From the UHGV virus genome UHGV-0105868: 23,305 nucleotides of DNA; one strand, given 5' to 3'. This DNA comes from a virus. A model generated the notes under the pieces. The model saw nothing but the letters and a program-made list of their open reading frames with translations, ran no database searches and had not been told where the DNA came from. A program made the translations under genes and the position numbers. Below, one piece after another: positions 2,097 to 22,946 of the stretch (position 1 is the first letter of the stretch; each line of letters starts with the position of its first letter).

Positions 2097-2284
2097 AAAA
2101 AATGCCCTCCAGTAGAGAGCATTTTTACTGTATGTATAACCAGTGTCAATGTATGAAATCCTACGACCATACATCTCACTGAAGCCATAATGAAGTTGGC
2201 TATTCTTTTTGCTATGTGAGCATGTAACTTTTGCGGTTAACCTGCGGCTCATTTTTATTTTAGACGCAGATATAAAAGCAAAAG

Positions 2285-2476
2285 TTATCGTGAGTTTTTA
2301 GTACAGATTTTTTTGGATTTACTAATAGTTCCATCATTGCAAACGAATTTGCCATCTGAGGTACAGTGAGAAACACCTCCCTTTTTCCCTGAGCAGGGAT
2401 AATTTCTAGCATAGGTAGTTAGTGGGTTTAATAACAAAGAACATGACAAAACCACAAAAAATACCTTACCAAGCAT
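2285..2476 (-). CDS. Small secreted/lipoprotein-like Cys-rich protein (63 aa), AT-rich moron
   Basis: Strong RBS (GGGAGGAAACT then ATG). N-terminal signal-peptide-like segment [23 protein letters not shown]. The predicted mature part has four Cys and many Lys/Gly. Sits in an AT-rich int-cI intergenic region. Confidence 0.5.
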
Positions 2477-2491
2477 AGTTTCCTCCCGGTA

Positions 2492-3061
2492 CTATTTAAC
2501 ATACTTGACTGTTAAACTTATAATTTTACCAATTATTTCAATGTCTTCTATCTTGCATTCGAAGGCTCTGTTTCCACCCTCGACGAAGATTCTTCCACCG
2601 GGTAAACGAGTAATGTCACGGATCGTTATTTCGCCATCAATACTTATTACCCATTTACCATCACGTATATCATCAAATTCTTTATCACAAATAAATTCAG
2701 AATTGTTATCTGTGATGACAAAAGGTTTTTTAAACGTAGAGGGTAGAAATCCCTTATCAAAAATATAAAAACCGTCTTTCTGCAATGCTCCATCAGACAA
2801 TAAATATTTTTCTACTTCTATAGTATTTGTATTTGCTGATGCTTGCTTTGAACCATGCCCTGTTGTTAGCCAATTAAGCGAGGTGCCCGTTTCAAGGGCG
2901 CACTGGATTACCCAATCTGCTGGAAAAATATCACGCATATAGCGCGTTGCCATGGTGCTCTTAGAAACACCTAAATGATCACAGAGAGCCTGACGGGTAC
3001 CGAACCCATATGCTTCAACTAAACGTTCTATGGCTTTCTTACCGCCGCTATTGAAATCCAC
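2492..3061 (-). CDS. cI: Phage 186 CI-type immunity repressor (HTH N-terminal domain, non-peptidase C-terminal domain)
   Basis: HTH region …ERLVEAYGFGTRQALCDHLGVSKSTMATRYMRD…CALETGTSLNWLTTG… resembles 186 CI as I remember it. No S24 peptidase motif was seen. I prefer a GTG start at 3061, preceded by GGAGGA (189 aa); the open frame extends to a GTG at 3148 (218 aa), so the start is uncertain. Confidence 0.7.
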   Translation of the reverse strand: MDFNSGGKKAIERLVEAYGFGTRQALCDHLGVSKSTMATRYMRDIFPADWVIQCALETGTSLNWLTTGHGSKQASANTNTIEVEKYLLSDGALQKDGFYIFDKGFLPSTFKKPFVITDNNSEFICDKEFDDIRDGKWVISIDGEITIRDITRLPGGRIFVEGGNRAFECKIEDIEIIGKIISLTVKYVK

Positions 3062-6129: not shown

Positions 6130-8540
6130 GCCATGCTGATATGAACAACTGCAGCGGCTTTAACGAGGCCGCCGCAGCATTCTCATGGAACAGCCCGAAA
6201 AAGGCTATTAACCCTTATCTGGACCCGGCGGAAGTTGCGCCGGTTTCTGCGCTTTCAAACCTGATCACTCTGTACGCTGTCGATAACGAGCAGGAACAAC
6301 TGCGTCGCGAGGCACTGAGTGATCAGGTCTGGGAGCGTTATTTCTTTAATGAATCCCGTGATCCTGTTCACCGCGAAATGGAGCAGGATAAGCTCATTAG
6401 CCGGGCAAAGCTGGCGCATGAGCAGCAGCGTTTTAATCCAGATATGGTCATTCTGGCGGACGTCAATGCCCAGCCTTCCCATATCAGCAAGCCGCTGATG
6501 CAACGTATTGAATACTTCAGCAGCCTGGGCAGGCCAAAGGCTTATTCCCGCTATTTGCGTGAGACGATTAAGCCATGTCTGGAACGACTGGAGCATGTAC
6601 GCGACTGTCAGCTATCCACTTCTTTTCGCTTTATGGCAAGCCATGAAGGGCTGGACGGCCTGCTGATCCTGCCTGAAATGAGTCAGGATCAGGTGAAGCG
6701 CCTGTCTACCCTTGTCGCCGCGCATATGAGCATGTGCCTTGATGCAGCTTGTGGTGATTTGTATGCCACCGATGACGTTAAGCCAGAAGAAATCCGCAAG
6801 ACATGGGAAAAGGTGGCAGCGGAAACCCTGCGTCTGGATGTTATCCCGCCTGCGTTTGAGCAACTCCGTCGGAAAAGAAACCGCCGTAAACCCGTGCCTT
6901 ATGAACTCATTCCGGGTTCGCTGGCGCGTATGTTATGCGCCGACTGGTGGTATCGGAAATTATGGAAGATGCGTTGCGAATGGCGGGAAGAGCAGTTGCG
7001 TGCTGTTTGCCTGGTCAGCAAAAAAGCATCTCCCTATGTCAGCTATGAAGCCGTGATGCATAAACGTGAGCAGCGCCGTAAGTCGCTGGAGTTTTTCCGT
7101 TCTCATGAACTGGTGAACGAAGACGGCGACACGCTGGATATGGAAGACGTGGTAAACGCCAGCAGCAGCAACCCTGCGCATCGCCGCAATGAGATGATGG
7201 CCTGTGTTAAAGGTCTGGAGCTTATCGCGGAAATGCGCGGTGACTGCGCCGTTTTCTACACCATCACCTGTCCGTCACGTTTCCATTCCACGCTAAATAA
7301 CGGCAGGCCCAACCCGACCTGGACAAATGCGACGGTAAGACAAAGCAGTGATTATCTGGTCGGTATGTTTGCTGCATTTCGTAAGGCGATGCACAAAGCC
7401 GGATTGCGCTGGTATGGCGTGCGGGTGGCTGAGCCGCATCATGACGGTACAGTTCACTGGCACCTGTTGTGTTTTATGCGCAAAAAAGATCGCCGCGCCA
7501 TTACTGCTTTGTTGCGTAAGTTTGCCATTCGTGAAGACCGCGAGGAGCTGGGTAATAACACGGGACCACGCTTTAAGTCTGAGCTGATAAACCCGCGCAA
7601 AGGTACGCCAACAAGCTACATCGCGAAATACATCAGTAAGAACATTGACGGGCGTGGTCTGGCTGGCGAGATCAGCAAGGAAACGGGTAAATCCCTGCGT
7701 GATAACGCTGAATACGTTAATGCCTGGGCGTCTCTGCATCGTGTTCAGCAATTCCGCTTCTTTGGCATTCCGGGGCGTCAGGCTTACCGTGAACTGCGAT
7801 TGCTGGCTGGTCAGGCGGCAAGGCAACAGGGGGACAAAAAAGCAGGTGCGCCGGTACTGGATAACCCGCGTCTTGATGCCATCCTGGCCGCTGCTGATGC
7901 TGGTTGTTTTGCCACCTACATCATGAAGCAGGGCGGCGTACTGGTTCCCCGCAAATATCACCTCATCAGAACCGCTTATGAAATCAACGAAGAGCCGACC
8001 GCCTATGGCGATCACGGCATTCGTATTTATGGCATCTGGTCACCCATTGCAGAGGGCAAGATCTGCACTCATGCGGTGAAGTGGAAAATGGTTCGTAAGG
8101 CCGTTGACATTCAGGAGGCGGCAGCCGACCAGGGCGCTTGCGCCCCTTGGACTCGTGGCAATAACTGTCCCCTTGCTGAAAATTTGTACCAACAAGGGAA
8201 AGACAAATCAGCTGATGGGGATACCAGAACGGATATCACCCGTATGGATGACAAGGAGTTGCACGATTACCTGCACAGTATGAACAAAAAAGAACGCCGG
8301 GAACTGGCTGCAAGGTTACGCCTGGTGAAACCGAAACGGCGTAGAGACTACAAACAGCGAATTACAGACCATCAACGACAGCAGCTCGTCTATGAACTGA
8401 AGTCCAGAGGATTTGATGGCAGCGAGAAAGAGGTCGATTTACTCCTTCGCGGCGGCAGTATTCCGTCAGGAGCAGGCCTGCGTATCTTCTATCGGAACCA
8501 GCGTTTGCAGGAAGATGATAAGTGGCGGGATCTGTATTAA
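6126..8540 (+). CDS. A: Replication initiation protein A (rolling-circle nicking endonuclease, P2 gpA-like)
   Basis: 804 aa containing …[13 protein letters not shown]… (HxH metal motif) and …YIAKYISKN… (catalytic Tyr region). Start overlaps the dam stop (ATGA). Confidence 0.9.
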
Positions 8541-8632
8541 TTACGCGGGTTAACAATTCGTGCTCTTAATAATACCAGGCATATCAGGCTGATGAACGTA
8601 AAAAAACGTTTTACATCAGTAAGATTATTATA

Positions 8633-8652
8633 TACTGTAAATATAAACAGTG
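8633..8652 (+). promoter_or_regulatory. LexA (SOS) box TACTGTAAATATAAACAGTG overlapping a putative promoter
   Basis: CTGT-N8-ACAG with an AT-rich spacer, close to the consensus TACTGTATATATATACAGTA. Lies about 45 bp upstream of the 8694 start. Placement matches the LexA-controlled tum promoter of phage 186. Confidence 0.6.
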
Positions 8653-8693
8653 GTTATGTGTACAGTATTGCTTGTGGTGTCATAGGAGGAAAA

Positions 8694-8882
8694 ATGCAGG
8701 ACTATTTTTTGGAGTCTTTGAAGCTCCAGCGCATTGATTTTTTTCTTAAGCTTGTAGCGGCTAGTGAGTGTAGTGATGAAGAGAAGGGGCTGGCTCTGCA
8801 GTGGGTTTCTGAATTGACTGATGAACTCATGGCAAAAATCAGAAGCCACGAATACAACCGCTCAATGGATGTCATCAGCTGA
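8694..8882 (+). CDS. Small SOS-regulated protein (62 aa) at the tum antirepressor position
   Basis: ATG preceded by AGGAGG. Directly downstream of the LexA box. The protein itself is not recognised; the antirepressor role is inferred from position only. Confidence 0.45.
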   Translation: MQDYFLESLKLQRIDFFLKLVAASECSDEEKGLALQWVSELTDELMAKIRSHEYNRSMDVIS

Positions 8883-8892
8883 GGTGACTTTT

Positions 8893-9126
8893 ATGCGCAT
8901 TGAAATAATGATCGATAAAGAGCAGAAAATTAGCCAGTCTACCCTGGACGCCCTTGAATCCGAGCTTTACCGCAATCTGCGCCCCCTGTATCCCAAAACG
9001 GTAATTCGTATCCGCAAAGGTAGCTCTAACGGTGTGGAACTGACCGGACTGCAACTGGACGAAGAAAGAAAACAAGTGATGAAAATTATGCAGAAGGTGT
9101 GGGAAGACGACAGCTGGCTGCATTAA
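8893..9126 (+). CDS. DinI-like protein
   Basis: 77 aa, MRIEIMIDKEQKISQSTLDALESELYRNL…KVWEDDSWLH, resembling E. coli DinI (MRIEVTIAK…ALAGELSRR…ETWESADDWFVSE) in length and pattern. RBS GAGGTG. Confidence 0.75.
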   Translation: MRIEIMIDKEQKISQSTLDALESELYRNLRPLYPKTVIRIRKGSSNGVELTGLQLDEERKQVMKIMQKVWEDDSWLH

Positions 9127-9631
9127 GAAACGTTGCTGGCGTCTGAACTTGCTTCTGGCGTCAGCAAGGTTGAACAACGAGCTGTGCGAGGCGTTAGCCA
9201 TCTGATCAAAAGACATCAAATATCATATTGTATATCGTGGTTAAACGCTGGAAACAATCATTCCCGGTCAGAGGGGCTTCTTTCAATGTCCAAAAGAGTG
9301 AGATAGAGGATACAGGATGGGAAGAGCTTATGATGATTGTTCTTGGATTGACTTGGAATATTTGATGTCCATTATCTAATGGACTTGGTCTTGATAGTTA
9401 TCACGAAAGAGGAAGCCAACGTCATGTATTTGAAGAGTATCTCTTACCTTTTGATTAATTATTGTCCAAGTTTTTCAAAAGCTTCTTATCTGGCGGTCGA
9501 TACATGATTTACTGTTGGATATGGTATTTAAAATTAATCTTTACACTGTGGTATATGCAGAATAGGATATTATCAATACAATCAAACCGTTTTCATACGG
9601 TTGTTAATATTGCAATGTTATAGGTAATGTC

Positions 9632-10750
9632 ATGTATCTTTTCAAGTATTACCGTCCGGACTTCTTCTTCGAGAAAGCTATTCGTTATAATGAATTATAT
9701 TTTTCCGCTCCTGCGCAATTGAATGATCCTAATGATCTCAATATAGATTATCGTTTTGATAATAAATTGAAATTATGGGATATTTTATTGCGTTCTCCTT
9801 GCGATAAATCCTATGAAAATTTGAGTCACATATTAGATTTGAGTAATTTGAAGATACATAAGGGATTGAATCGTATTTTTAGAGGAAAAAAAATAAAAAG
9901 TAGCATTGAGTCATTAGATAGCCTGTTTGACTCACACGTTGATGAGATACGTAAGATCATAAATGATGGTTTACTACCTATCAATGTGATTAATTCCGCT
10001 ATTTATGGGAATATTCCTGAACCACGCCAATTTTTGGTCTCACTTTGCGAGAACAGTATCAAAGAAAGGTTGTATAGGAAAATAGTTCCTGCAGTATTCA
10101 GTGTGTCATTTTCAGCTAATGCGTTAGATCGTATGATGTGGGCGCATTATGCTGCAGGCTTTAGTGGTTGTGTTGTGATTTATGAAACGCAGGATTTTAA
10201 TATTAATGGCGTGCCACATCCTGGAATGAAGCTAAGAGAAAATTTATTTTCATCAGATAAATTTAATTTTCCAGTTAAGCAAATAAAATATAGTAATCAG
10301 GCTAAAGAGGTTTCACTTCTAGACCCAAGCGCAAATGTTGCAGAGTTATTTTTAACTAAAAATAGATTTTGGAGATATGAAGCTGAATATCGAATGTTTA
10401 TTCCAGAGGCAAATGCAGGAATAGGGAGTGAGCGGCATGTTCAAAGACGCGTAAATCGAAATATTGGACATATTTTTCATCATGATGCTAATGTTGTTAA
10501 AGGGATCATTTTTGGTCCTAGAATGTGTGAAATGAAAAAAGAAAGCATATGGAATTGTATCAAGTCAAATATGGAGAATTCAAATTCAACAATATGTTAT
10601 TTTTTTGACTCTGAGTTATCAGCATCAGGAAAGATTACTATTTCAAAAGGGCAACGAGCGGAAAAAATGAAAAATTTCCCTTTGTTCAGGAACAAGTTAA
10701 GTCAGACGGAAATGGCTAAAGTTTTGAAGGAAATTGGCATTACGAACTAA
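9632..10750 (+). CDS. AT-rich cargo protein (372 aa) with DUF2971-like N-terminal motif; candidate defence / abortive-infection gene
   Basis: Long ORF in a visibly AT-rich region, unlike the GC-richer phage backbone. N-terminus LFKYYRPDFFFEKAIRYNELYFSAPAQLNDPNDL and a later …SFSANALDRMMWAHYAAGFSGCVVIY… resemble the DUF2971 family signature as I remember it. Function unknown. Confidence 0.8.
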   Translation: MYLFKYYRPDFFFEKAIRYNELYFSAPAQLNDPNDLNIDYRFDNKLKLWDILLRSPCDKSYENLSHILDLSNLKIHKGLNRIFRGKKIKSSIESLDSLFDSHVDEIRKIINDGLLPINVINSAIYGNIPEPRQFLVSLCENSIKERLYRKIVPAVFSVSFSANALDRMMWAHYAAGFSGCVVIYETQDFNINGVPHPGMKLRENLFSSDKFNFPVKQIKYSNQAKEVSLLDPSANVAELFLTKNRFWRYEAEYRMFIPEANAGIGSERHVQRRVNRNIGHIFHHDANVVKGIIFGPRMCEMKKESIWNCIKSNMENSNSTICYFFDSELSASGKITISKGQRAEKMKNFPLFRNKLSQTEMAKVLKEIGITN

Positions 10751-10816
10751 CCTAACAACAGTGCATGCCTATGCTGCCTGAATTTGCATGACCGTTTGAG
10801 GATCGTTTTTGCTAAG

Positions 10817-10840
10817 GCCCGCCAGAACTGGCGGGCTTTT
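10817..10840 (+). terminator. Rho-independent terminator (gcccgcc-agaact-ggcgggc-TTTT)
   Basis: 7-bp GC stem, 6-nt loop and a T-run, 66 bp downstream of the 9632..10750 stop. Confidence 0.6.
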
Positions 10841-10885
10841 GCGTGGATCAGGCACCTGCATGAAAACCACTACACAAAGCGGGCA

Positions 10886-10904
10886 GGCGTGGCGGGGATA
10901 CGAG
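10886..10904. other. Candidate cos site (19-nt cohesive-end region GGCGTGGCGGGGATACGAG)
   Basis: The first 13 nt match the P2/186 cohesive-end sequences as I remember them (P2 GGCGAGGCGGGGAAAGCAC; 186 GGCGTGGCGGGGAAAGCAT). Sits in a short GC-rich block between the two AT-rich cargo genes, between gene A and the 3' end of Q, where cos lies in P2-like prophages. Confidence 0.4.
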
Positions 10905-11005
10905 CGCGCGCAACAGTGTAACAATCTGGATCTAATGTGATATAGTTACTGTAAATATTATTAATTATTCTTATATGCATTATTAAATATTTTAATGGAG
11001 CGTTT

Positions 11006-12679
11006 ATGGAAAAATATCAAGATGAGGAATATGTAGACGATTTAACTGAGCGTGTTTTTCTCATTAAGCAACAACTGGAAGCGGGAAAACTAAAAATAGC
11101 TCATCATCTTGTAGAAGGTTTTATTGAAAGTTTTAAAAGAATAAGGCTGCGACAGGATGGTAAAGTTGACCCTTCTACTGTTGATGGCAGAATAAGGGCT
11201 ATGGGAGCAGCGGTTAATCACTTTTTAGAAAGAGAAGATATAAAAAACAAATACTCTATTCAGGACTTGCAAAGTTCTTACTTTAATATTCTTTTTAGTA
11301 ATTTTGGCGAGTTGTTTTATCTGATGAAAAAAACTAATGCAACGCCACATAAAGCATCAAGTTTTTTTTCTCAACAAGAAGAATATGTTAAGCAAATAGA
11401 AGGTGTTTTTCCTGAGTTATATAATCAGGTAATAGAGTTTTGGCAGGTAACATCCGATATTGGTGTAATACATTTGCAGGATGGTTCTCAGTTTAAAGCT
11501 AATTTTTCTGGTGACTTATTTCCTGCATTTGATGAGAATGCTGTCTCTATTGCAGGGTTGTATGTTGATACTATTTCACTTCCATGTCCTATATTAAGAG
11601 TCGGTCGTCTCTATGAAAAGTCAGATAAGGCTGAGTTTACAAGGATACTTCTGAAGCATGTCCTAACATGTATGACATATAAAGAAGTAGCGCTTGAAGA
11701 TATAGAGCCAGCAATAGTATTAATTTTGCCGGATAGAAGAGATTTTGAAACTGAGAGCAAAAAAAATTTGATGAGTTTTTGTGAGCCTTATGCTCTGACT
11801 CATGCGCAATATCTCTATGATCGACGGTTCGAAAGCTACGATGAATTTCAAGATTTTAGTTATTCGATGAATGATATTGATGCTGTTCTTAAAAATATTA
11901 AGAGAGCAGATAGACTTATTTTTGATACAGCATGGGGGCTAAATCCAAAAACTCAATTAGAAAAACTACTATCTGATAAAAAAAGAATATCACGTAATGT
12001 TGTTGGTGATCATGCTGGAATGGAGGTTTTCCTTTCCTGCATTGGAAGAATGCCGCAAGCCTATTCAGCAAAATGTAATGCACAAGAACTTGGTAGTACT
12101 CCATATATAAATGCAGACACATCTTGGCTCTATTATACTTGGCTTATTGAGTACGAATCTCTTAATTTTGATGTCAATGATATTGAACTAAAAAATTTGC
12201 ATATGGTTCATGCGTTATCTGCTGGTATGCAAGATGGTTTTTCATGGTTAGGAAATGTACCGGTCAATAAAATAATTGAGTTGAGACGTAACAAATTGAT
12301 GGAGGATGTAAGATCCATCTTATCAAATGGTGTTGACTCTTTAATCAATTCTTCGGCAGAGAGCTTTTCGAGGACAACGCAAAAAGTAATTGATAATGTA
12401 GACCGGGCTTTTATTGAACATCAAAGGATTCTTGCAAAAGCCCAAAAAGAGAAATTGAGAATTTACGGACTGGATGTCCTACCATGTATCGCAAATGGTG
12501 CTATAGCAATTGCTGGAGCGCTGACTGGCAATACTACTTTAGCGGCGTTAAGTGCAGGCCTTGGAGTAATAGGTATTCCGAGTATTAGTGATATCAAATC
12601 TAAATTTAAGCAGAGGCAAGAGAAGCTTGATGCCTATCAACGTTCTGTTACAGGTATACTCTTTAGCCATAAATCTTAA
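11006..12679 (+). CDS. AT-rich cargo protein (557 aa), unknown function, C-terminal hydrophobic Gly/Ala-rich segment; candidate defence / abortive-infection effector
   Basis: Long AT-rich ORF with a GGAG RBS. No motif recognised in the mostly soluble-looking body. Near the C-terminus is a hydrophobic stretch, …LPCIANGAIAIAGALTGNTTLAALSAGLGVIGIPSI…, long enough for one or two membrane helices. Confidence 0.8.
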   Translation: MEKYQDEEYVDDLTERVFLIKQQLEAGKLKIAHHLVEGFIESFKRIRLRQDGKVDPSTVDGRIRAMGAAVNHFLEREDIKNKYSIQDLQSSYFNILFSNFGELFYLMKKTNATPHKASSFFSQQEEYVKQIEGVFPELYNQVIEFWQVTSDIGVIHLQDGSQFKANFSGDLFPAFDENAVSIAGLYVDTISLPCPILRVGRLYEKSDKAEFTRILLKHVLTCMTYKEVALEDIEPAIVLILPDRRDFETESKKNLMSFCEPYALTHAQYLYDRRFESYDEFQDFSYSMNDIDAVLKNIKRADRLIFDTAWGLNPKTQLEKLLSDKKRISRNVVGDHAGMEVFLSCIGRMPQAYSAKCNAQELGSTPYINADTSWLYYTWLIEYESLNFDVNDIELKNLHMVHALSAGMQDGFSWLGNVPVNKIIELRRNKLMEDVRSILSNGVDSLINSSAESFSRTTQKVIDNVDRAFIEHQRILAKAQKEKLRIYGLDVLPCIANGAIAIAGALTGNTTLAALSAGLGVIGIPSISDIKSKFKQRQEKLDAYQRSVTGILFSHKS

Positions 12680-12685
12680 TGTAGA

Positions 12686-12710
12686 GGGCCGAGGTATTCG
12701 GCCCTTAGTT
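12686..12710 (+). terminator. Rho-independent terminator (gggccga-ggtat-tcggccc then T-rich) between convergent genes
   Basis: 7-bp GC-rich stem and 5-nt loop followed by ttagtttta, immediately after the 557-aa ORF stop and before the Q stop. Confidence 0.55.
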
Positions 12711-13742
12711 TTATATGAAACTGTATGGCATGAATTTTATTATGTCATCTTTGAGCCATTTATTGAGTTCTTCTATTCTGTTTTGTAGCGGTATCAATTC
12801 ATTACGCATAAAAACCTTACTAGCCTTCTCCACATCCCCAAATCCCCCAACATTATTCGGTATTATCCCCATCATTTGCGGCGGCACTCGGTGTGCTGCC
12901 ATCATGTCATCCCGGCTCACGTTCTTGATATTCAAAAATTCATCCTTTGCCGCGACTTCTGACAGAGGAATAATCTGAAGCCCGTCCTTTTTGCCGTTAG
13001 GCGAGTACATAAACAGGTTGCGGAAGTTGCCAGGGCCTTTGGCGCTTTTCATCGCATTGCGGAGGTTGTTCACGTCCTCCTGGTTCTGCGCGGCATCGGT
13101 CATGTACATGATGAAGCCAGCATGACTGCCGTTAATGTAATACTTTCGGCGGAACAGCGTGGCGGACTCGTTGAGCAGGGCTGACGGAATGGCAGAAAGA
13201 TAACCGGGCAGGCCGTAGATCTCCTGGTTGATGTCCGGTTCCATCAGATGAAAGATGCTGCCTTTCGTGAACTGATATGGCTGCGTGGTCATACCGTATT
13301 GCACAAACCAGTAGGTATCCAGGTCTAACCCGCGTCGGGTGTATTTTGCCAGGGCAGGTTCAAGGGCGATAACTTCACCGAAGCGGTTCGTGCGTTTCTC
13401 CAGGTAGGCGTTACCAAATACCAGATAGTCCTGAACAAAACGCGAAAAAGCCTGCTGGCTGAGCAGCGGGTGAGGGATGTAGGTGCTGGTCAGAATGTTG
13501 CACTTTACTGCAATCGGGGAACTATGATGCACGGCAGCGCGGAAGGTGCGCGCCAGTCCGTCAAAGCTGACGGGCGGTTCATACCAGCGGTCCATCTGTA
13601 CGCATTCCACATAATCCAGCAGTTCTCGGCGGTCCAGAACAGGAACGGGATCGCCGAAGCTGAATGCTTCGGCTGTAGTTTGACTTTTAAGCTGGATCTG
13701 TTTCGTCGCCGCAGCGCGGTTCTTCTTACTCTTTCCCATCAA
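12711..13742 (-). CDS. Q: Portal protein (P2 gpQ-like)
   Basis: 343 aa at the P2 gene Q position and orientation (3' end toward cos, divergent from the head genes). Confidence 0.85.
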   Translation of the reverse strand: MMGKSKKNRAAATKQIQLKSQTTAEAFSFGDPVPVLDRRELLDYVECVQMDRWYEPPVSFDGLARTFRAAVHHSSPIAVKCNILTSTYIPHPLLSQQAFSRFVQDYLVFGNAYLEKRTNRFGEVIALEPALAKYTRRGLDLDTYWFVQYGMTTQPYQFTKGSIFHLMEPDINQEIYGLPGYLSAIPSALLNESATLFRRKYYINGSHAGFIMYMTDAAQNQEDVNNLRNAMKSAKGPGNFRNLFMYSPNGKKDGLQIIPLSEVAAKDEFLNIKNVSRDDMMAAHRVPPQMMGIIPNNVGGFGDVEKASKVFMRNELIPLQNRIEELNKWLKDDIIKFMPYSFI

Positions 13743-15343
13743 AAAATCTCCACAATATTGCTGGTATTGGCGGATTCGCCCTGCAGCGGTTCGTTAAACA
13801 GTGCGTGCATCGTTGCCCAGGCCAGATCGGCGTGGCTGGCTTCTTCGCTGCGGCTGGCTTCATAGGTCGGGCGGTTGCCACTGGCGGTGGTGGCGCGACG
13901 GATTGCCATAAAGGACTGCGCTATGTCGGTGTGTCCGGCGTCAAACTCCAGACGGCGGTGGCTGATAATGTCGTAGGCCTTGAGTACCAGGGCGTTTTTA
14001 ACGTTGGGGTTGTAGACAAACTCCCGGACGGCAGGAAAAAACGCTTTCACGTTCTCGTAAACCCCGTGACCAACGCCGGTTGAGTCGATACCGATATAGG
14101 TCACGTTGTACTGTTCGGTCAGTTTTTTGATGGCGTCAGCCTGGGCGCGGAAGTCCATCCCGCGCCACTGGTGACGCTCAAGAATGCGGAACTTACCACC
14201 CGGCACGGCTGGCGGTGCCACCACCACGCATCCGGCGCTGTCGCCGTTTTGCGTGCCTTTTGCCGGGTCATAACCGATCCACACTTCGCGCCAGCCAAAC
14301 GGGCGCAGCGCCAGTGCATGAAAGTCGGTCCAGACTTCCCAACTGTCCACCATGCACGCCTGCAGCTCGCTGAGCGGAAACACGGACGCGAGATCGTCCA
14401 CAAACTCGCACATCAGCAGGTTCTGGTATTCATCCGGGCTGTACTCCATGCGTAGCTGGTCGAGGTCGAACAGGTTACAGCCGCCGCGTACCGCATCTTC
14501 CACGGTGACTATCTGGCGGTATTGCCCGTCTGCGCACAGCAGGCCGGGGGCCAGATTGCTGTGGGACAGGTCGATGTCCACCTTATCGGCTTTGTTGCGC
14601 CCACGGTTGAACAGCGCACCGGACCAGAACGGATAAGCACTGTGTGTCAGACTGGATGGCGTGGAAAAATAGGTTTGTCGCCATTTTTTGTGAATAGCCA
14701 TACCGGAAGCCACTTTGCGCAGCTCCTGAAATTTCGGTATCCAGAAATATTCATCCAGATACAGGTTGCCGTGATAACTCTGGGCCGTGCGGGCATTGGT
14801 GCCGAGGAAATACAGTGTGGCCCCGTTGGGAAGCACCATCGGATCGCCTTTCAGCTCCACCTCTACTTCTTTGGCGAAGTCGATGATGTACTGTTTAAAG
14901 ACGTGGGCCTGTGCCTTACTGGCGGAAAGGAAAATCTGGTTACGTCCGGTAAGCAGGGCGTCAATCAGGGCTTCACGGGCAAAGTAAAAGGTCGCGCCGA
15001 TCTGGCGTGACTTCAGCAGGTTGCGGATGCGGTTGGTTTTTCCGGCTTCCCACCAGTGGCGCTGGTAGTTGAACATGGAGGAATGGAAAATTTCTTCCAG
15101 CTTCTCAATCTGTTCATCGGTGAAAACGTTCTTTTCCGGCTGACGGCGTGGGCCTTTGTTGCGGTTGGCGACGTTAGGGTTTAAGTCGGCTTCGTTGCCG
15201 CCATTGTTAAACTTGCCGATCCGCGCATGGCGCTCCGACTGGCGCGCCAGCAGGTCAATCTCTTTGAAATCTTTCCCTTCTTTGTGCTCCTTCATAATGA
15301 GCTGGCAGTAGCGTGCGGCGGTGGTGAGCTGCATCTGATCCAC
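13739..15343 (-). CDS. P: Terminase large subunit (P2 gpP-like ATPase/nuclease)
   Basis: 534 aa with a Walker-A-like …LLKSRQIGATFYFA… region. Start overlaps the Q stop. Start is GTG or a nearby ATG. Confidence 0.85.
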   Translation of the reverse strand: MDQMQLTTAARYCQLIMKEHKEGKDFKEIDLLARQSERHARIGKFNNGGNEADLNPNVANRNKGPRRQPEKNVFTDEQIEKLEEIFHSSMFNYQRHWWEAGKTNRIRNLLKSRQIGATFYFAREALIDALLTGRNQIFLSASKAQAHVFKQYIIDFAKEVEVELKGDPMVLPNGATLYFLGTNARTAQSYHGNLYLDEYFWIPKFQELRKVASGMAIHKKWRQTYFSTPSSLTHSAYPFWSGALFNRGRNKADKVDIDLSHSNLAPGLLCADGQYRQIVTVEDAVRGGCNLFDLDQLRMEYSPDEYQNLLMCEFVDDLASVFPLSELQACMVDSWEVWTDFHALALRPFGWREVWIGYDPAKGTQNGDSAGCVVVAPPAVPGGKFRILERHQWRGMDFRAQADAIKKLTEQYNVTYIGIDSTGVGHGVYENVKAFFPAVREFVYNPNVKNALVLKAYDIISHRRLEFDAGHTDIAQSFMAIRRATTASGNRPTYEASRSEEASHADLAWATMHALFNEPLQGESANTSNIVEIF

Positions 15344-19065: not shown

Positions 19066-19663
19066 TCTGCTGCCACCGGGTTCAACACCACTGGAGCGCC
19101 GACTGGCGCAAACCTGCAGCGGGATTTCTGATCTGCAGGTGCCGCTTCGTGACTTGTGGAATCCGGCAACCTGTCCGGTCAGTTTCCTGCCTTATCTCGC
19201 CTGGGCGTTCTCTGTGGATCGCTGGGACGAGGGCTGGACAGAAAGCGTCAAGCGCCAGGTGGTGAAGGATGCTTTTTATATTCATCAGCATAAAGGGACC
19301 ACCAGTGCCGTGCGGCGGGTGGTGGAGCCGTTCGGATTCCTGATCCGCATTATTGAGTGGTGGCAGACCGGAGAAACACCGGGCACGTTTCGCCTGGATA
19401 TCGGCGTGCAGGACCAGGGCATCACTGAAGATACCTATCTGGAACTTGAGCGACTGATAAGCGATGCCAAACCATGTAGCCGCCACATGATCGGCATGTC
19501 CATCAATCTGCAGACCAGCGGCCCGCATTGGGTGGGAGCCGCCAGCTATCTTGGCGAAGAAATCACGATCTATCCGTATATCAACGAAACGATTATTTCC
19601 GGTGGCACCGCGCATGAAGGCGGGGCGGTCCATGTTATTGACACAATGAGAGTGAATCCATGA
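19058..19663 (+). CDS. I: Baseplate/tail protein I (P2 gpI-like)
   Basis: 201 aa; …LLPPGSTPLERRLAQTCSGI…LWNPATCPVSFLPYLAWAFSVDRWDEGW… closely resembles P2 gpI as I remember it. Confidence 0.85.
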   Translation: MNSLLPPGSTPLERRLAQTCSGISDLQVPLRDLWNPATCPVSFLPYLAWAFSVDRWDEGWTESVKRQVVKDAFYIHQHKGTTSAVRRVVEPFGFLIRIIEWWQTGETPGTFRLDIGVQDQGITEDTYLELERLISDAKPCSRHMIGMSINLQTSGPHWVGAASYLGEEITIYPYINETIISGGTAHEGGAVHVIDTMRVNP

Positions 19664-21144
19664 GCACAAAATTTTATACCCTGCTGACGGATATTGGCGC
19701 GGCGAAACTTGCCAGCGCCGCCGCGCTCGGTGTGCCGCTAAAAATTACCCATATGGCGGTGGGCGATGGCGGTGGAGTATTGCCAACGCCGGACGCAAAG
19801 CAGACGGCACTGGTAAATGAGAAACGCCGGGCTGCACTGAATATGCTTTATATCGACCCGCAGAACAGCAGCCAGATTATTGCCGAACAGGTGATCCCTG
19901 AAAACGAGGGCGGTTGGTGGATACGTGAAGTGGGCTTGTTTGATGAGTCCGGGGCATTGATTGCCGTGGGCAACTGCCCGGAAAGCTATAAGCCGCAACT
20001 GGCTGAAGGTAGCGGGCGCACTCAGACCGTGCGCATGGTGCTGATTACCAGCAGCACGGACAATATCACCCTGAAAATCGACCCTGCTGTAGTGCTGGCA
20101 ACCCGCAAGTATGTGGATGACAAGGCACTGGAGCTGAAGGTGTACGCGGATGATCAGATGGCAAAACATCTTGCCGCACCGGACCCGCATTCACAGTACG
20201 CGCCAAAAGCCAGCCCGACATTTACCGGAATCCCCAAAGCGCCAACGCCAGCGGCGGGGAATAATACCACGCAGGTTGCGACCACTGCGTTTGTACAGGC
20301 GGCACTGACGGCCCTTATTAATGGTGCGCCAGCCACGCTGGACACGCTGAAAGAAATAGCCGCAGCCATTAACAATGATCCGAATTTCAGTACCACCATT
20401 AACAATGCGCTGGCACTAAAAGCACCGTTGTCGAGTCCGGCACTCACCGGAACGCCAACAGCCCCCACGGCGGCGCAGTCGGTCAACAATACACAGATTG
20501 CCACTACGGCTTTTGTGAAATCGGCGATTGCAGGAATGGTGGGTTCTGCACCTGCTGCACTGGATACACTGAACGAACTGGCGGCGGCACTGGGGAATGA
20601 TCCGAACTTTGCCACGACAATGCTTAATGCGTTGGCAGGTAAACAACCGCTGGACAATACGCTTACCAATTTGAGTGGAAAGGATGTAGCTGGTCTTCTC
20701 ACATACCTTCAATTGGGAGAAGCGGCAAAACGGGATGTCGGAACCGGTAATAATCAACTCCCGGACATGTCCGCATTTGGTATGTCGCGAAACGGACAAA
20801 CTGCCTGGGATATTCTCCCAAATGGTATGATTCGACAGGCTGGCACTGTGACACTGACACCAGTTGGTAACTTCAACTCGCAGGTGCTTGGTGGGGTGAC
20901 GTACTACACCCATTACTACAGGGTTAATTTCCCCAGACAATTCCCAAATGCACAAATAGCAACGCTGGCAACACTAGCGAGTTACAGCTATTCGACCCAG
21001 GCAACAATGGCCGGAAAATCACTGGCAACGCATCGCGATACTGATTCTGGCACTGACGTATCAAGAACGCGATTCACTGTGGCGTATACGACACCCAATC
21101 TCGGCGAAACACCGACACTGCATTTTGAAGCAATAGGATACTAA
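19660..21144 (+). CDS. H: Tail fibre protein (P2 gpH-like) with a divergent C-terminal receptor-binding region
   Basis: 494 aa. The N-terminal two-thirds carry conserved fibre motifs (MAVGDGGG, ESYKPQLAEGSGRTQT, repeated …PTFTG.P.APT…NNTQ(V/I)ATTAFV…, LNELAAALGNDPNFATTM). The C-terminal ~150 aa are different and end …EAIGY. Confidence 0.85.
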   Translation: MSTKFYTLLTDIGAAKLASAAALGVPLKITHMAVGDGGGVLPTPDAKQTALVNEKRRAALNMLYIDPQNSSQIIAEQVIPENEGGWWIREVGLFDESGALIAVGNCPESYKPQLAEGSGRTQTVRMVLITSSTDNITLKIDPAVVLATRKYVDDKALELKVYADDQMAKHLAAPDPHSQYAPKASPTFTGIPKAPTPAAGNNTTQVATTAFVQAALTALINGAPATLDTLKEIAAAINNDPNFSTTINNALALKAPLSSPALTGTPTAPTAAQSVNNTQIATTAFVKSAIAGMVGSAPAALDTLNELAAALGNDPNFATTMLNALAGKQPLDNTLTNLSGKDVAGLLTYLQLGEAAKRDVGTGNNQLPDMSAFGMSRNGQTAWDILPNGMIRQAGTVTLTPVGNFNSQVLGGVTYYTHYYRVNFPRQFPNAQIATLATLASYSYSTQATMAGKSLATHRDTDSGTDVSRTRFTVAYTTPNLGETPTLHFEAIGY

Positions 21145-21146
21145 AT

Positions 21147-21380
21147 ATGGAGAATATCTATTTCAGCCCAACGACCGTTGGTTTTTATGTTTCTGAACAA
21201 GAGCGACCTGATGATGCGGTTGAAGTCTCGCCAGAGGTGGAGGCATTTTTGAGGGAGTGTGTTATCTGGGGAGCGGATACATTTAACGTAGAGCGAGATG
21301 CAGCAACGGTGACATATCCAACAGAACTGCTTGAATATGTCACCACCTACAACGCCCCCGTTAAATATCCTGCGGATTGA
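21147..21380 (+). CDS. Small ORF (77 aa) in the tail-fibre-assembly position; possibly a truncated Tfa N-terminal domain
   Basis: Immediately follows H. Lacks the conserved Tfa C-terminal motif. Ends where the convergent minus-strand Tfa gene ends. Confidence 0.35.
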   Translation: MENIYFSPTTVGFYVSEQERPDDAVEVSPEVEAFLRECVIWGADTFNVERDAATVTYPTELLEYVTTYNAPVKYPAD

Positions 21381-21771
21381 CAGGCCATACGGGTTTTGCT
21401 GTATCAACGCGCATCAGCAGGACCCGGTATTTTTTCCATTCAGATAACGCGGCGGTTTCTTCTGCCGTCGCGATTTCCGCATCAAAAGCATCCTGTCTCC
21501 AGACTATTTCCTTATCAGCCATAGAACGCAATACCGTTCTTTTCTGTTCAGCCTGAATAATCTGTTGTTCAGCGGAGAGTGGCGGGATATCAATCCACGC
21601 AGGATTACCATTTTTATCAGCCCCCAGCGTTTTGCCTTGTGGCGCTACGCCTGTGTAAATTGCCATTGTTTCATCATCAACATCAACGCCATTTTCAGGC
21701 CATGAACCGGCGCTGATATATACCTCTTTTAGTGCTTTCGGATAGAAAGAGCCTTTATAAAATTTATTCAT
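21361..21771 (-). CDS. Tail fibre assembly chaperone (Tfa), inverted relative to H
   Basis: 137 aa from MNKFYKGSFYPK…, with the C-terminal Tfa signature …EIATAEETAALSEWKKYRVLLMRVDTAKPVWPVNPQDI, which compares with lambda Tfa and P2 gpG C-termini. Encoded on the strand opposite to H. Confidence 0.7.
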   Translation of the reverse strand: MNKFYKGSFYPKALKEVYISAGSWPENGVDVDDETMAIYTGVAPQGKTLGADKNGNPAWIDIPPLSAEQQIIQAEQKRTVLRSMADKEIVWRQDAFDAEIATAEETAALSEWKKYRVLLMRVDTAKPVWPVNPQDI

Positions 21772-21773
21772 TC

Positions 21774-22200
21774 TTAATACCCCAGCGCGATAAAACAACA
21801 ATCTTCGGTGCCCTCTCCGGATGGCGACCAGTTCTGAATACTGATATGCGTTCTGCTGGCAATACGCACATTCATCGCGGCATTGTAGCCAGATGTTCCA
21901 CGGTTTCCGGTCGCAAATAAGCCTGCATAGGGAAAAGCAAATGGTAAGGCATATCCAGCATCAGCTCCCTTTTGTGTTGCCACCGTTCCCCACTGCAACA
22001 TAAGTTTCACCGGGTTTCCTGTCGTCGCAATGCATGGAATGTAGATGTAGCCATTCCCTGACATCATTGACCTGAAGCTGTCTAAATCCAGTAACTTCGA
22101 GGCATTATCTGCTCCAACATCTCGTGTTGCGGCGGTCCCTAACTGGAGCGCATTTCGGAAGGCTGATACATCAGAAATATCAGCTCCATTACCCGCCGTG
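21774..22200 (-). pseudogene. Alternative tail-fibre C-terminal (receptor-binding) domain fragment on the opposite strand
   Basis: The minus-strand ORF encodes …FFTAGNGADISDVSAFRNALQLGTAATRDVGADNASKLLDLDSF…FIALGY, which parallels the H C-terminal region (…YLQLGEAAKRDVGTGNNQLPDMSAF…EAIGY). There is no constant N-terminal part. The track ORF's first ~35 codons are antisense to the D fragment. Confidence 0.6.
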
Positions 22201-22232
22201 AAAAATCGTGGCACAAGACCACCGTCGGGGAA

Positions 22233-22946
22233 GTGGTGAAGGAAATAGCCGCGCGGCACAAGCTGAAGATGGCACTGGGTAAAGACCTGTCGGATAAGCC
22301 CGTTGAGCATATAGACCAGACTAATGAGAGTGACGGCAGTTTTCTGATGCGGCTGGCGCGACAGTACGGTGCCATCGCGTCGGTGAAAAATGGCAATCTG
22401 TTATTCATCCGGCAGGGGCAGGGCAAAAGCGCCACTGGTAAACCTCTGCCAGTGATCACTATCACACGCAAGGACGGCGACAGTCACCGATTTACCCTGG
22501 CAGATCGCGGAGCCTACACGGGCGTAATTGCCAGCTGGTTGCATACCCGCGAACCTGCGAAGAAAGAAAGCACCACGGTGAAGCGTAAGCGCAGAACTAA
22601 GAAGCAGAAGAAAGAGCCGGAAGCGAAGCAGGGCGATTACCTGGTGGGTACGGATGAAAACGTGCTGGTACTTAATCGCACTTATGCCAACCGGAGCAAC
22701 GCTGAACGGGCAGCGAAAATGCAGTGGGAACGCCTGCAACGCGGCGTTGCGTCATTCTCGCTACAACTGGCGGAAGGGCGGGCAGATCTTTACACGGAAA
22801 TGCCAGTGAAAGTTAGTGGCTTTAAACAACCGATAGATGATGCGGAATGGACCATTACGACTCTGACTCATACCGTCAGCCCGGATAATGGTTTTACGAC
22901 CAGTCTGGAGCTTGAAGTGAGGATTGATGATTTCGAAATGGAATGA
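22233..22946 (+). pseudogene. D: Tail protein D fragment (C-terminal ~235 aa of P2 gpD-like); 5' half and upstream sheath/tube/tape-measure genes absent
   Basis: …AARHKLKMALGKDLS…HIDQTNESDGSFLMRLARQYGAIASVKNGNLLFIRQGQGKS…VKVSGFKQPIDDAEWTITTLTHTVSPDNGFTTSLELEV… resembles the C-terminal half of P2 gpD as I remember it. It begins about 30 bp from the inverted fibre fragment. FI, FII, E, T and U are not in the window. Confidence 0.65.

Follow-up and report, generated by a model that had tools for sequence, protein, structure and literature searches.

Analysis of the Unified Human Gut Virome (UHGV) virus genome UHGV-0105868, a stretch of 23,305 nucleotides referred to here as the window, revealed a 186-type (P2-family) Escherichia coli prophage, with an integration site beside rcdA/ybjJ, in which the interval from the replication gene A to the portal gene is, by gene order and cos alignment, the known cos-proximal accessory hotspot of P2/186-type prophages. 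The interval carries two large open reading frames (ORFs) on the plus strand, ORF1 (9632-10750; 372 amino acids (aa)), a DUF2971 protein, and ORF2 (11006-12679; 557 aa), a member of an uncharacterised family with a C-terminal hydrophobic hairpin. As judged from genome comparisons, these are two unrelated single-gene modules, one on each side of cos, that have been independently acquired and exchanged, and not one two-gene island as had been proposed in a preliminary description of this DNA. The reading favoured here, with moderate confidence, is that of a hotspot with two independent cargo modules, each most likely a prophage-encoded, abortive-infection-type anti-phage gene.

The edges of the variable segments were set by pairwise blastn against prophages with other occupants. 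Homology to the prophage with other genes in slot 1 (L002) ends at 9197 and restarts at 10761, and homology to the prophage with an AIPR/AbiU-like gene in slot 2 (L003) ends at 10911 and restarts at 12760. Cargo module 1 thus occupies slot 1, on the gene A side of cos, at 9198-10760 (plus strand, GC content 0.339), and cargo module 2 occupies slot 2, between cos and the portal gene, at 10912-12759 (plus strand, GC 0.350), in place of the single interval of 9127-12710 first suggested. The AT-rich character ascribed to this DNA is borne out, with a GC content of 0.34-0.35 in the cargo against 0.50-0.58 in the backbone (gene A, 0.528; portal gene, 0.505; terminase gene, 0.564). The two ORFs are not chance occurrences, because they are long in stop-rich, AT-rich DNA and each has hundreds of full-length homologues.

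Between the two modules lies a conserved GC-rich block of 151 bp (10761-10911; GC 0.583) that aligns to the 186 and P2 end junctions. Within it, a 19-nt cohesive-end core, GGCGTGGCGGGGATACGAG (10886-10904), shares 15 of 19 positions with the cos annotated in 186, GGCGTGGCGGGGAAAGCAT (NC_001317 positions 1-19), and resembles that of P2/P4, GGCGAGGCGGGGAAAGCAC. Alignment to the circularised 186 and P2 ends revealed that the flanks are likewise conserved. Because of the core identity and the conserved flanks, the site previously flagged as a candidate cos is, by homology, a real one.

Each ORF had also been credited with its own terminator and a long AT-rich leader, and each of these statements holds for one gene only. 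The hairpin found 3' of ORF1 by an inverted-repeat scan (10811-10842, followed by TTTTG) lies inside the conserved cos block and is therefore not a terminator of ORF1's own. A GC-rich hairpin with a T-run (12684-12706; 10-bp stem with six GC pairs in the terminator scan) sits between the convergent ORF2 and portal genes, and is likely a bidirectional terminator shared tail to tail by both. The leader of ORF1 comprises 434 nt of cargo, whereas the AT-rich leader of ORF2 is only ∼94 nt long. A consensus scan gave weak evidence of a promoter-like site at the start of module 2 (10918-10946, plus strand; GTAACA-17-TATAGT with TG), but promoters are not claimed here because the 17 sites in the region are no more numerous than those in shuffled sequence (15.2 ± 3.5). 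Scans of 8400-12900 against Rfam (E up to 1) and for tandem repeats gave no match, and thus the leaders hold no ToxI-like RNA antitoxin or riboswitch; a repeat scan found no direct or inverted flanking repeats suggestive of a transposon or insertion sequence. Just upstream of the slot-1 boundary, a stretch of 32 nt (9168-9199) is 91% identical to positions 30383-30414 of the 186 record, which sit between orf97 and the terminator t95b; this stretch may be a conserved border of the cargo slot or an anchor for its recombination.

A census of 5,426 complete E. coli genomes revealed how freely the content of this interval varies among related prophages, as had been anticipated. The cos block was found in 1,249 of the genomes and is the only part of the cargo region so widely shared, with ORF1 DNA present in 27, ORF2 DNA in 17, and both in five. 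Slot 2 beside ORF1 has at least five different occupants: ORF2, an AIPR/AbiU-like gene (PADLOC AbiU, E 6e-25), genes encoding a DUF4145 or a PIN-domain protein, and a further hypothetical gene. Next to ORF2, slot 1 either is empty or contains two small genes other than ORF1 (other slot occupants were observed in loci L002, L003, L020, L021, and L022). It is these genome counts and the varied partners in each slot that identify the two genes as separate modules. The window, like the P2/186 hotspot, has its AT-rich and variable cargo between the replication and portal genes and next to cos, and so agrees with that hotspot in both position and variable content. All of the cargo of P2 (tin and old) and of 186 (orf97) is, however, on the gene A side of cos (Odegrip 2006, as cited in PMC9122126, is tied to this P2/186 cos-proximal cargo). 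The gap from cos to the portal gene is ∼170-190 bp in 186 and P2, whereas the window holds a 1.8-kb module there. The portal side of cos may therefore be a distinct second cargo slot that is empty in the two reference phages.

The hotspot and both genes have already been catalogued, contrary to the earlier suggestion that the genes were possibly undescribed, and the interest lies in the two occupants. Rousset et al. 2022 describe the cos-proximal gpA-gpQ locus of E. coli as a defence hotspot with 1,650 arrangements in 18,150 loci, and its active occupants include old/tin, DUF4238, a three-gene system, DprA-PRTase and the phage AC1 system (PMC9122126). Two entries of their Table S5B are near-identical to the proteins described here, and both are curated as single-gene systems: #65, 'DUF2971', with 65 occurrences, corresponds to ORF1, and #79, unnamed but annotated '2 TM', with 49 occurrences, corresponds to ORF2 (PMC9122126). 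ORF1 moreover belongs to a named Pfam family and to a PADLOC candidate family with one validated member, Aristaios (PMC11381338). Literature searches for the protein accessions of ORF1 and ORF2 and for 'PDC-S31' found no paper.

ORF1 matches Pfam DUF2971 (PF11185) at 22.4 bits, just above the cutoff of 22, and the same family was matched by all 31 of its aligned relatives, with a best E value of 2.6e-8. It also matches the PADLOC candidate PDC-S31 over residues 3-312 (E 3.1e-23) and phrog_1762 (E 5e-29). An AlphaFold2 model of the protein (predicted local distance difference test (pLDDT) 91.7, predicted template modelling score (pTM) 0.84) has a predicted DarT/Tpt1-like ADP-ribosyltransferase (ART) fold with a conserved ExE motif. 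Residues Arg8, Ser157/Ser159/Ser161 and Glu250xGlu252 are invariant among the 31 relatives, down to 30% identity, and in the model are located on or next to strands 2-7, 155-161, and 252-258, an arrangement that could represent an R/SxS/ExE ART signature. A hydropathy scan revealed neither a signal peptide nor a hydrophobic segment.

No antitoxin-like partner was found beside ORF1, where cos lies downstream and only a decayed small ORF lies upstream. This remnant (9206-9373, plus strand), which has lost its start codon and contains a premature stop, shares 68% identity by tblastn with residues 3-58 of an 86-aa ORF (L020:2063-2323) that precedes, in intact form, a DUF2971 gene of 85% identity in a prophage of the enterotoxigenic E. 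coli strain L3_E36. The 86-aa ORF may encode a regulator, or else may once have partnered the DUF2971 gene. A 40%-identical homologue is a stand-alone gene in the moron cluster of a lambdoid prophage, and another relative stands alone in a Pseudomonas chromosome. In a tblastn search of 50,697 phage records, ORF1 was found nowhere and ORF2 in a single record, CP019275, which is a P2-like E. coli replicon of 37 kb.

A 2025 survey places DUF2971 as a predicted ART family near DarT and AbiGi, with some of its proteins predicted to be effectors (PMC12522546). The closest functional parallel is Aristaios, a single-gene DUF2971 system of Lactococcus (316 aa) that confers phage resistance by abortive infection (PMC11381338). 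ORF1 resembles Aristaios and PDC-S31 in being a single DUF2971 gene with a predicted ART fold and no partner, but it is longer (372 versus 316 aa), comes from a different phylum, and has an additional long helical insertion (approximately residues 40-150) and a C-terminal β-rich subdomain; this comparison is one of descriptions and not of sequences. Identity to DarT is only 8-12%. Membership of ORF1 in DarTG was rejected, as there is no adjacent partner gene such as one for the DarG macrodomain antitoxin, and no PADLOC match to DarT or DarG.

ORF2 is comprised of an N-terminal helical domain, a centre similar to DitB (approximately residues 195-452), and the C-terminal hydrophobic hairpin. In its AlphaFold2 model (pLDDT 82.8, pTM 0.74), the N-terminal region is helical, the centre is mixed α/β, and the C-terminal part is a long hairpin of helices. 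It has no Pfam, NCBIfam or significant PHROG match, no Pfam family was matched consistently by 46 diverse relatives, and no solved fold was matched by its core. NCBIfam likewise gave no match for ORF1, and sequence-profile searches of the PDB gave none for either family. As stated previously, then, neither protein looks like a structural, replication or lysis protein in Pfam, PHROGs or NCBIfam searches. The affinities of both are of the defence type (PDC-S31 for ORF1 and DitB for ORF2), in line with the earlier view of them as candidate defence genes. The ORF2 family is large, with 212 matches in a word-indexed search and at least 761 clusters at 50% identity (E <=1e-3; 266 at <=1e-30), and ranges over Gammaproteobacteria, Betaproteobacteria and Desulfobulbia-type lineages. 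Its members are mostly 545-560 aa long, with a minority of 700-840 aa that carry an N-terminal extension in which Pfam and PADLOC scans identified no domain. Across the family, at 22-43% identity, Tyr92, Trp146, His156, Lys164, Gly169, Tyr186, Asp188, Thr189, Pro195, Arg348, Ser373, Trp374, Arg427, and Arg436 are invariant or nearly so. The two hydropathy peaks, 489-507 and 511-527, are Gly/Ala-rich and also conserved, and they agree with the '2 TM' comment on entry #79 of Table S5B (PMC9122126).

Residues 195-452 of ORF2 match positions 95-344 of the 361-position PADLOC DitB model with an E value of 2.7e-10, and DitB was matched by 14 of the 46 relatives. The match of ORF2 is partial, covering 250 of the 361 model positions, and the architecture differs, as ORF2 is ∼200 aa longer than DitB with an extra N-terminal helical domain and the C-terminal membrane hairpin. 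Aditi reportedly is a two-gene system consisting of DitA and DitB, described by Millman et al. in 2022. Its mechanism is listed as unknown (PMC12926258; bioRxiv 10.1101/2024.10.26.620412), and literature searches for DitA/DitB returned only off-topic papers. ORF2, unlike DitB, has no DitA partner and is alone in every context examined; with no DitA match for ORF1 or ORF2 at E <=1, and with homologue neighbours that differ from context to context, membership of Aditi was rejected. The second affinity is to Avs1c, the PADLOC model for a small accessory protein of AVAST type 1, whose 86 positions match the N-terminal ∼70 residues of 16 of the 46 relatives (best E 5e-7). ORF2 itself has no such match at E <=1 and, in contrast to AVAST type 1, no Avs NTPase or sensor protein is nearby. 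Two further candidates were rejected. A marginal match to LeoBC of the dynamin-like Eleos system (LeoA/LeoBC; E 0.003), found in one of the 46 relatives, falls in the helical and hydrophobic region 430-540 of ORF2, and there is no Pfam GTPase domain; for P2 Old (ATPase-TOPRIM) and Tin, neither ORF1 nor ORF2 gave a PADLOC match.

The genomic contexts of ORF2 homologues extend beyond prophages. One lies directly upstream of a Gabija pair in a Tn7-like element (GajA, E 1e-229; GajB, E 6e-234), others are found in an integrase/AlpA island between mutS and recA and near a retron-like pair of helix-turn-helix and reverse transcriptase genes with an HP1-type prophage, and a further one occupies the same cos-portal slot in a Pantoea 186-like prophage. 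No partner gene is conserved across these contexts. In the Gabija locus (L017:2440-15683), the homologue, 44% identical to ORF2, sits between a 1,017-aa UvrD-type helicase with an HNH gene and the complete Gabija pair, and the island adjoins the TniQ/TniB/transposase genes of the Tn7-like element, a layout that identifies it as a mobile defence island. Taken as a single proposition, the view that ORF2 represents a widespread single-protein immune family, with a DitB-related core and the C-terminal membrane hairpin as a built-in effector, is a tentative one, somewhat short of even odds.

From the location and boundaries of the modules, their independent assortment, the family and fold affinities and the defence-island contexts described above, we infer anti-phage activity of both proteins, with triggers, targets and an abortive outcome; on these sequence-based grounds, a defence function of both genes is likely. 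ORF1 would be a soluble DUF2971 enzyme with an NAD+-binding ART fold and the R...SxS...ExE residues, kept inactive by autoinhibition until infection. Infection would then lead it to ADP-ribosylate a nucleic acid or protein target in an NAD+-dependent manner, and this modification would halt replication of the invading phage. In ORF2, the N-terminal helical domain (Avs1c-like in relatives) and the DitB-like centre would form a cytoplasmic sensing part, which the C-terminal Gly/Ala-rich two-segment hairpin would either anchor to the inner membrane or insert into it. On sensing infection, ORF2 would oligomerise and thereby compromise the membrane.

Several points weigh against this proposal. Location alone is no proof of defence, because the hotspot also holds other cargo: according to Rousset et al., in approximately one quarter of P2-like hotspots the cargo is not defensive (partition systems, for example), and ∼2% carry the cdt toxin (PMC9122126). 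Neither ORF1 nor ORF2 was found among the tested systems (Table S2) of that paper when the supplementary files covered were searched by domain name, accession and peptide, and the only matches were in Table S5. The likeness of ORF2 to DitB and Avs1c is to proteins of unexplained mechanism, and the DitA partner was not found. The hydrophobic segments of ORF2 are short and only moderately hydrophobic (Kyte-Doolittle ∼1.7-1.8), so that they could form a buried or re-entrant hairpin instead of a pore-forming element, and the division of the protein into sensor and effector is purely conjectural.

The most serious alternative, which we regard as unlikely but realistic, is that one or both genes serve the prophage life cycle or host fitness, with ORF1 acting as an SOS-induced takeover or effector ART (compare T4 Alt/Mod and toxin effectors) and ORF2 as a membrane protein of lysogenic conversion or superinfection exclusion. 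ORF1 is on the same strand as, and downstream of, the LexA-controlled small ORF/DinI module, and transcripts from the SOS promoter p95 of 186 run through a partial terminator to include the equally placed orf97. There are also predicted effectors among DUF2971 proteins (PMC12522546), and the non-defence cargo of the hotspot (PMC9122126) fits such a role. ORF1, however, lacks a signal peptide or hydrophobic segment, and its relatives occur in non-pathogens and in prophage moron clusters. For ORF2, an exclusion variant would have the protein block DNA entry instead of killing the cell; its membrane hairpin is as found in exclusion proteins, and expressed 186 orf97 'blocks 186 infection', an exclusion-type function. 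Against this variant, homologues of ORF2 are found outside prophages in defence islands, including the one beside Gabija, which is a better fit to general immunity than to exclusion directed at one particular phage. Exclusion is itself an anti-phage defence, and thus the alternative overlaps with the function favoured here for ORF2.

It is considerably less probable that ORF1 and ORF2 form one functional two-gene system straddling cos, for instance with ORF2 as membrane sensor/effector and ORF1 as its enzymatic partner. The two genes are adjacent, on the same strand and of similar GC content, they co-occur in five E. coli genomes, and a distant genome (GCA_033363915.1; L016:2413-8674) carries an ORF2 homologue together with two tandem DUF2971/PDC-S31 genes (331 and 268 aa) in one small integrase/Ogr-Delta island, which by sequence is a second, independent co-location of the two families. 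Nevertheless, 22 of the 27 ORF1 carriers lack ORF2 and 12 of the 17 ORF2 carriers lack ORF1, ORF1 is partnered by five different genes in slot 2, and no DUF2971 gene neighbours the ORF2 homologues of the Aeromonas, Aquitalea, Pantoea and metagenome loci. The DNA of the five genomes with both genes is 100% identical, and they may be of one ancestry; each gene was curated as a single-gene system in the Rousset et al. catalogue (PMC9122126). A two-gene operon spanning cos was rejected on the assortment counts. Less probable still is that the two ORFs are inert hitch-hiking cargo or decaying remnants, in keeping with the three internal deletions of the window prophage relative to that of strain p10A and the decayed small ORF upstream of ORF1, since five complete genomes carry both ORFs intact and with 100% identity, and both families keep their full-length architecture and invariant motifs down to 22-30% identity in many genera, which indicates purifying selection.

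Five complete E. coli chromosomes carry the DNA of the cargo region with 100% identity, among them that of strain p10A (NZ_CP049081), where the annotated gene order is replication endonuclease (gene A), a 62-aa ORF, a DinI-like gene, the DUF2971 protein, a hypothetical protein, and the convergent portal and terminase genes. This annotation, together with a LexA box and the Pfam DinI match, agrees with the assignment of gene A, the SOS-boxed small ORF/dinI module and the portal and terminase genes to the phage backbone. The LexA (SOS) box (8633-8651) is a perfect match to TACTGT-N8-ACAGT, with 0.2 chance matches expected, and lies ahead of the backbone SOS module (8694-9126, plus strand), which comprises the 62-aa ORF (8694-8882) and the DinI-like gene (8893-9126; Pfam DinI, E 6.6e-23). 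It is the counterpart of the 186 p95 SOS operator, as the annotated LexA site and promoter p95 of 186 are equally placed. On the other side of the cargo, the portal gene (12711-13742, minus strand), a homologue of gpQ and of 186 W with ∼68% nucleotide identity to the latter, forms the backbone boundary and is annotated in the identical p10A sequence.

Elsewhere in the window, a second LexA-box-like sequence with one mismatch, TACTGTATGTATAACCAGT, was found at 2126-2144, near the 5' end of the integrase ORF region. A second AT-rich patch (2250-3000; GC 0.34-0.38), containing a 63-aa ORF (2285-2476, minus strand) and the cI repressor gene region, is placed between the integrase and the lysis-lysogeny switch. 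Compared with the p10A prophage, to which it is otherwise 99.97-100% identical, the window has three internal deletions, at 15342, 18777, and 22190-22195. The first (∼1.57 kb) takes away the 5' end of the gene for the terminase ATPase, the 5' part of that for the capsid, and the gpO scaffold gene; the second (∼2.7 kb) affects lysis and tail genes; and the third (∼6.9 kb) covers invertase, sheath, tube, tape measure and U together with the N terminus of D. The third junction is absent from all complete E. coli genomes searched. Either the prophage of the window is defective with its hotspot intact, or the window is stitched or misassembled. An invertible-type tail-fibre region (19660-22310) starts with a fibre gene (19660-21144, plus strand). 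After it, the minus strand encodes a tail-fibre assembly gene (21361-21801) and an alternative tail-fibre C terminus (21774-22310; Gp53-like_C); in p10A, a recombinase gene comes directly afterwards.

If anti-phage, ORF1 would represent in E. coli the very large predicted-ART family DUF2971. Only one experimentally validated anti-phage member of this family was found, in Lactococcus, and an E. coli model would make the target and trigger tractable. The two-slot layout around cos refines how the hotspot is parsed in prophage mining. ORF2 is the better lead, as a large family with no Pfam model or structural relative that is found in prophage hotspots, in integrase islands and beside Gabija, and that joins modules known from two systems with validated activity but an opaque mechanism (DitB of Aditi and Avs1c of AVAST type 1). 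If ORF2 defends, its mechanism would illuminate both of these systems as well, and if it does represent an immune family, it would provide the first mechanistic handle on the DitB-type domain, on what is sensed and on how sensing is coupled to membrane damage.

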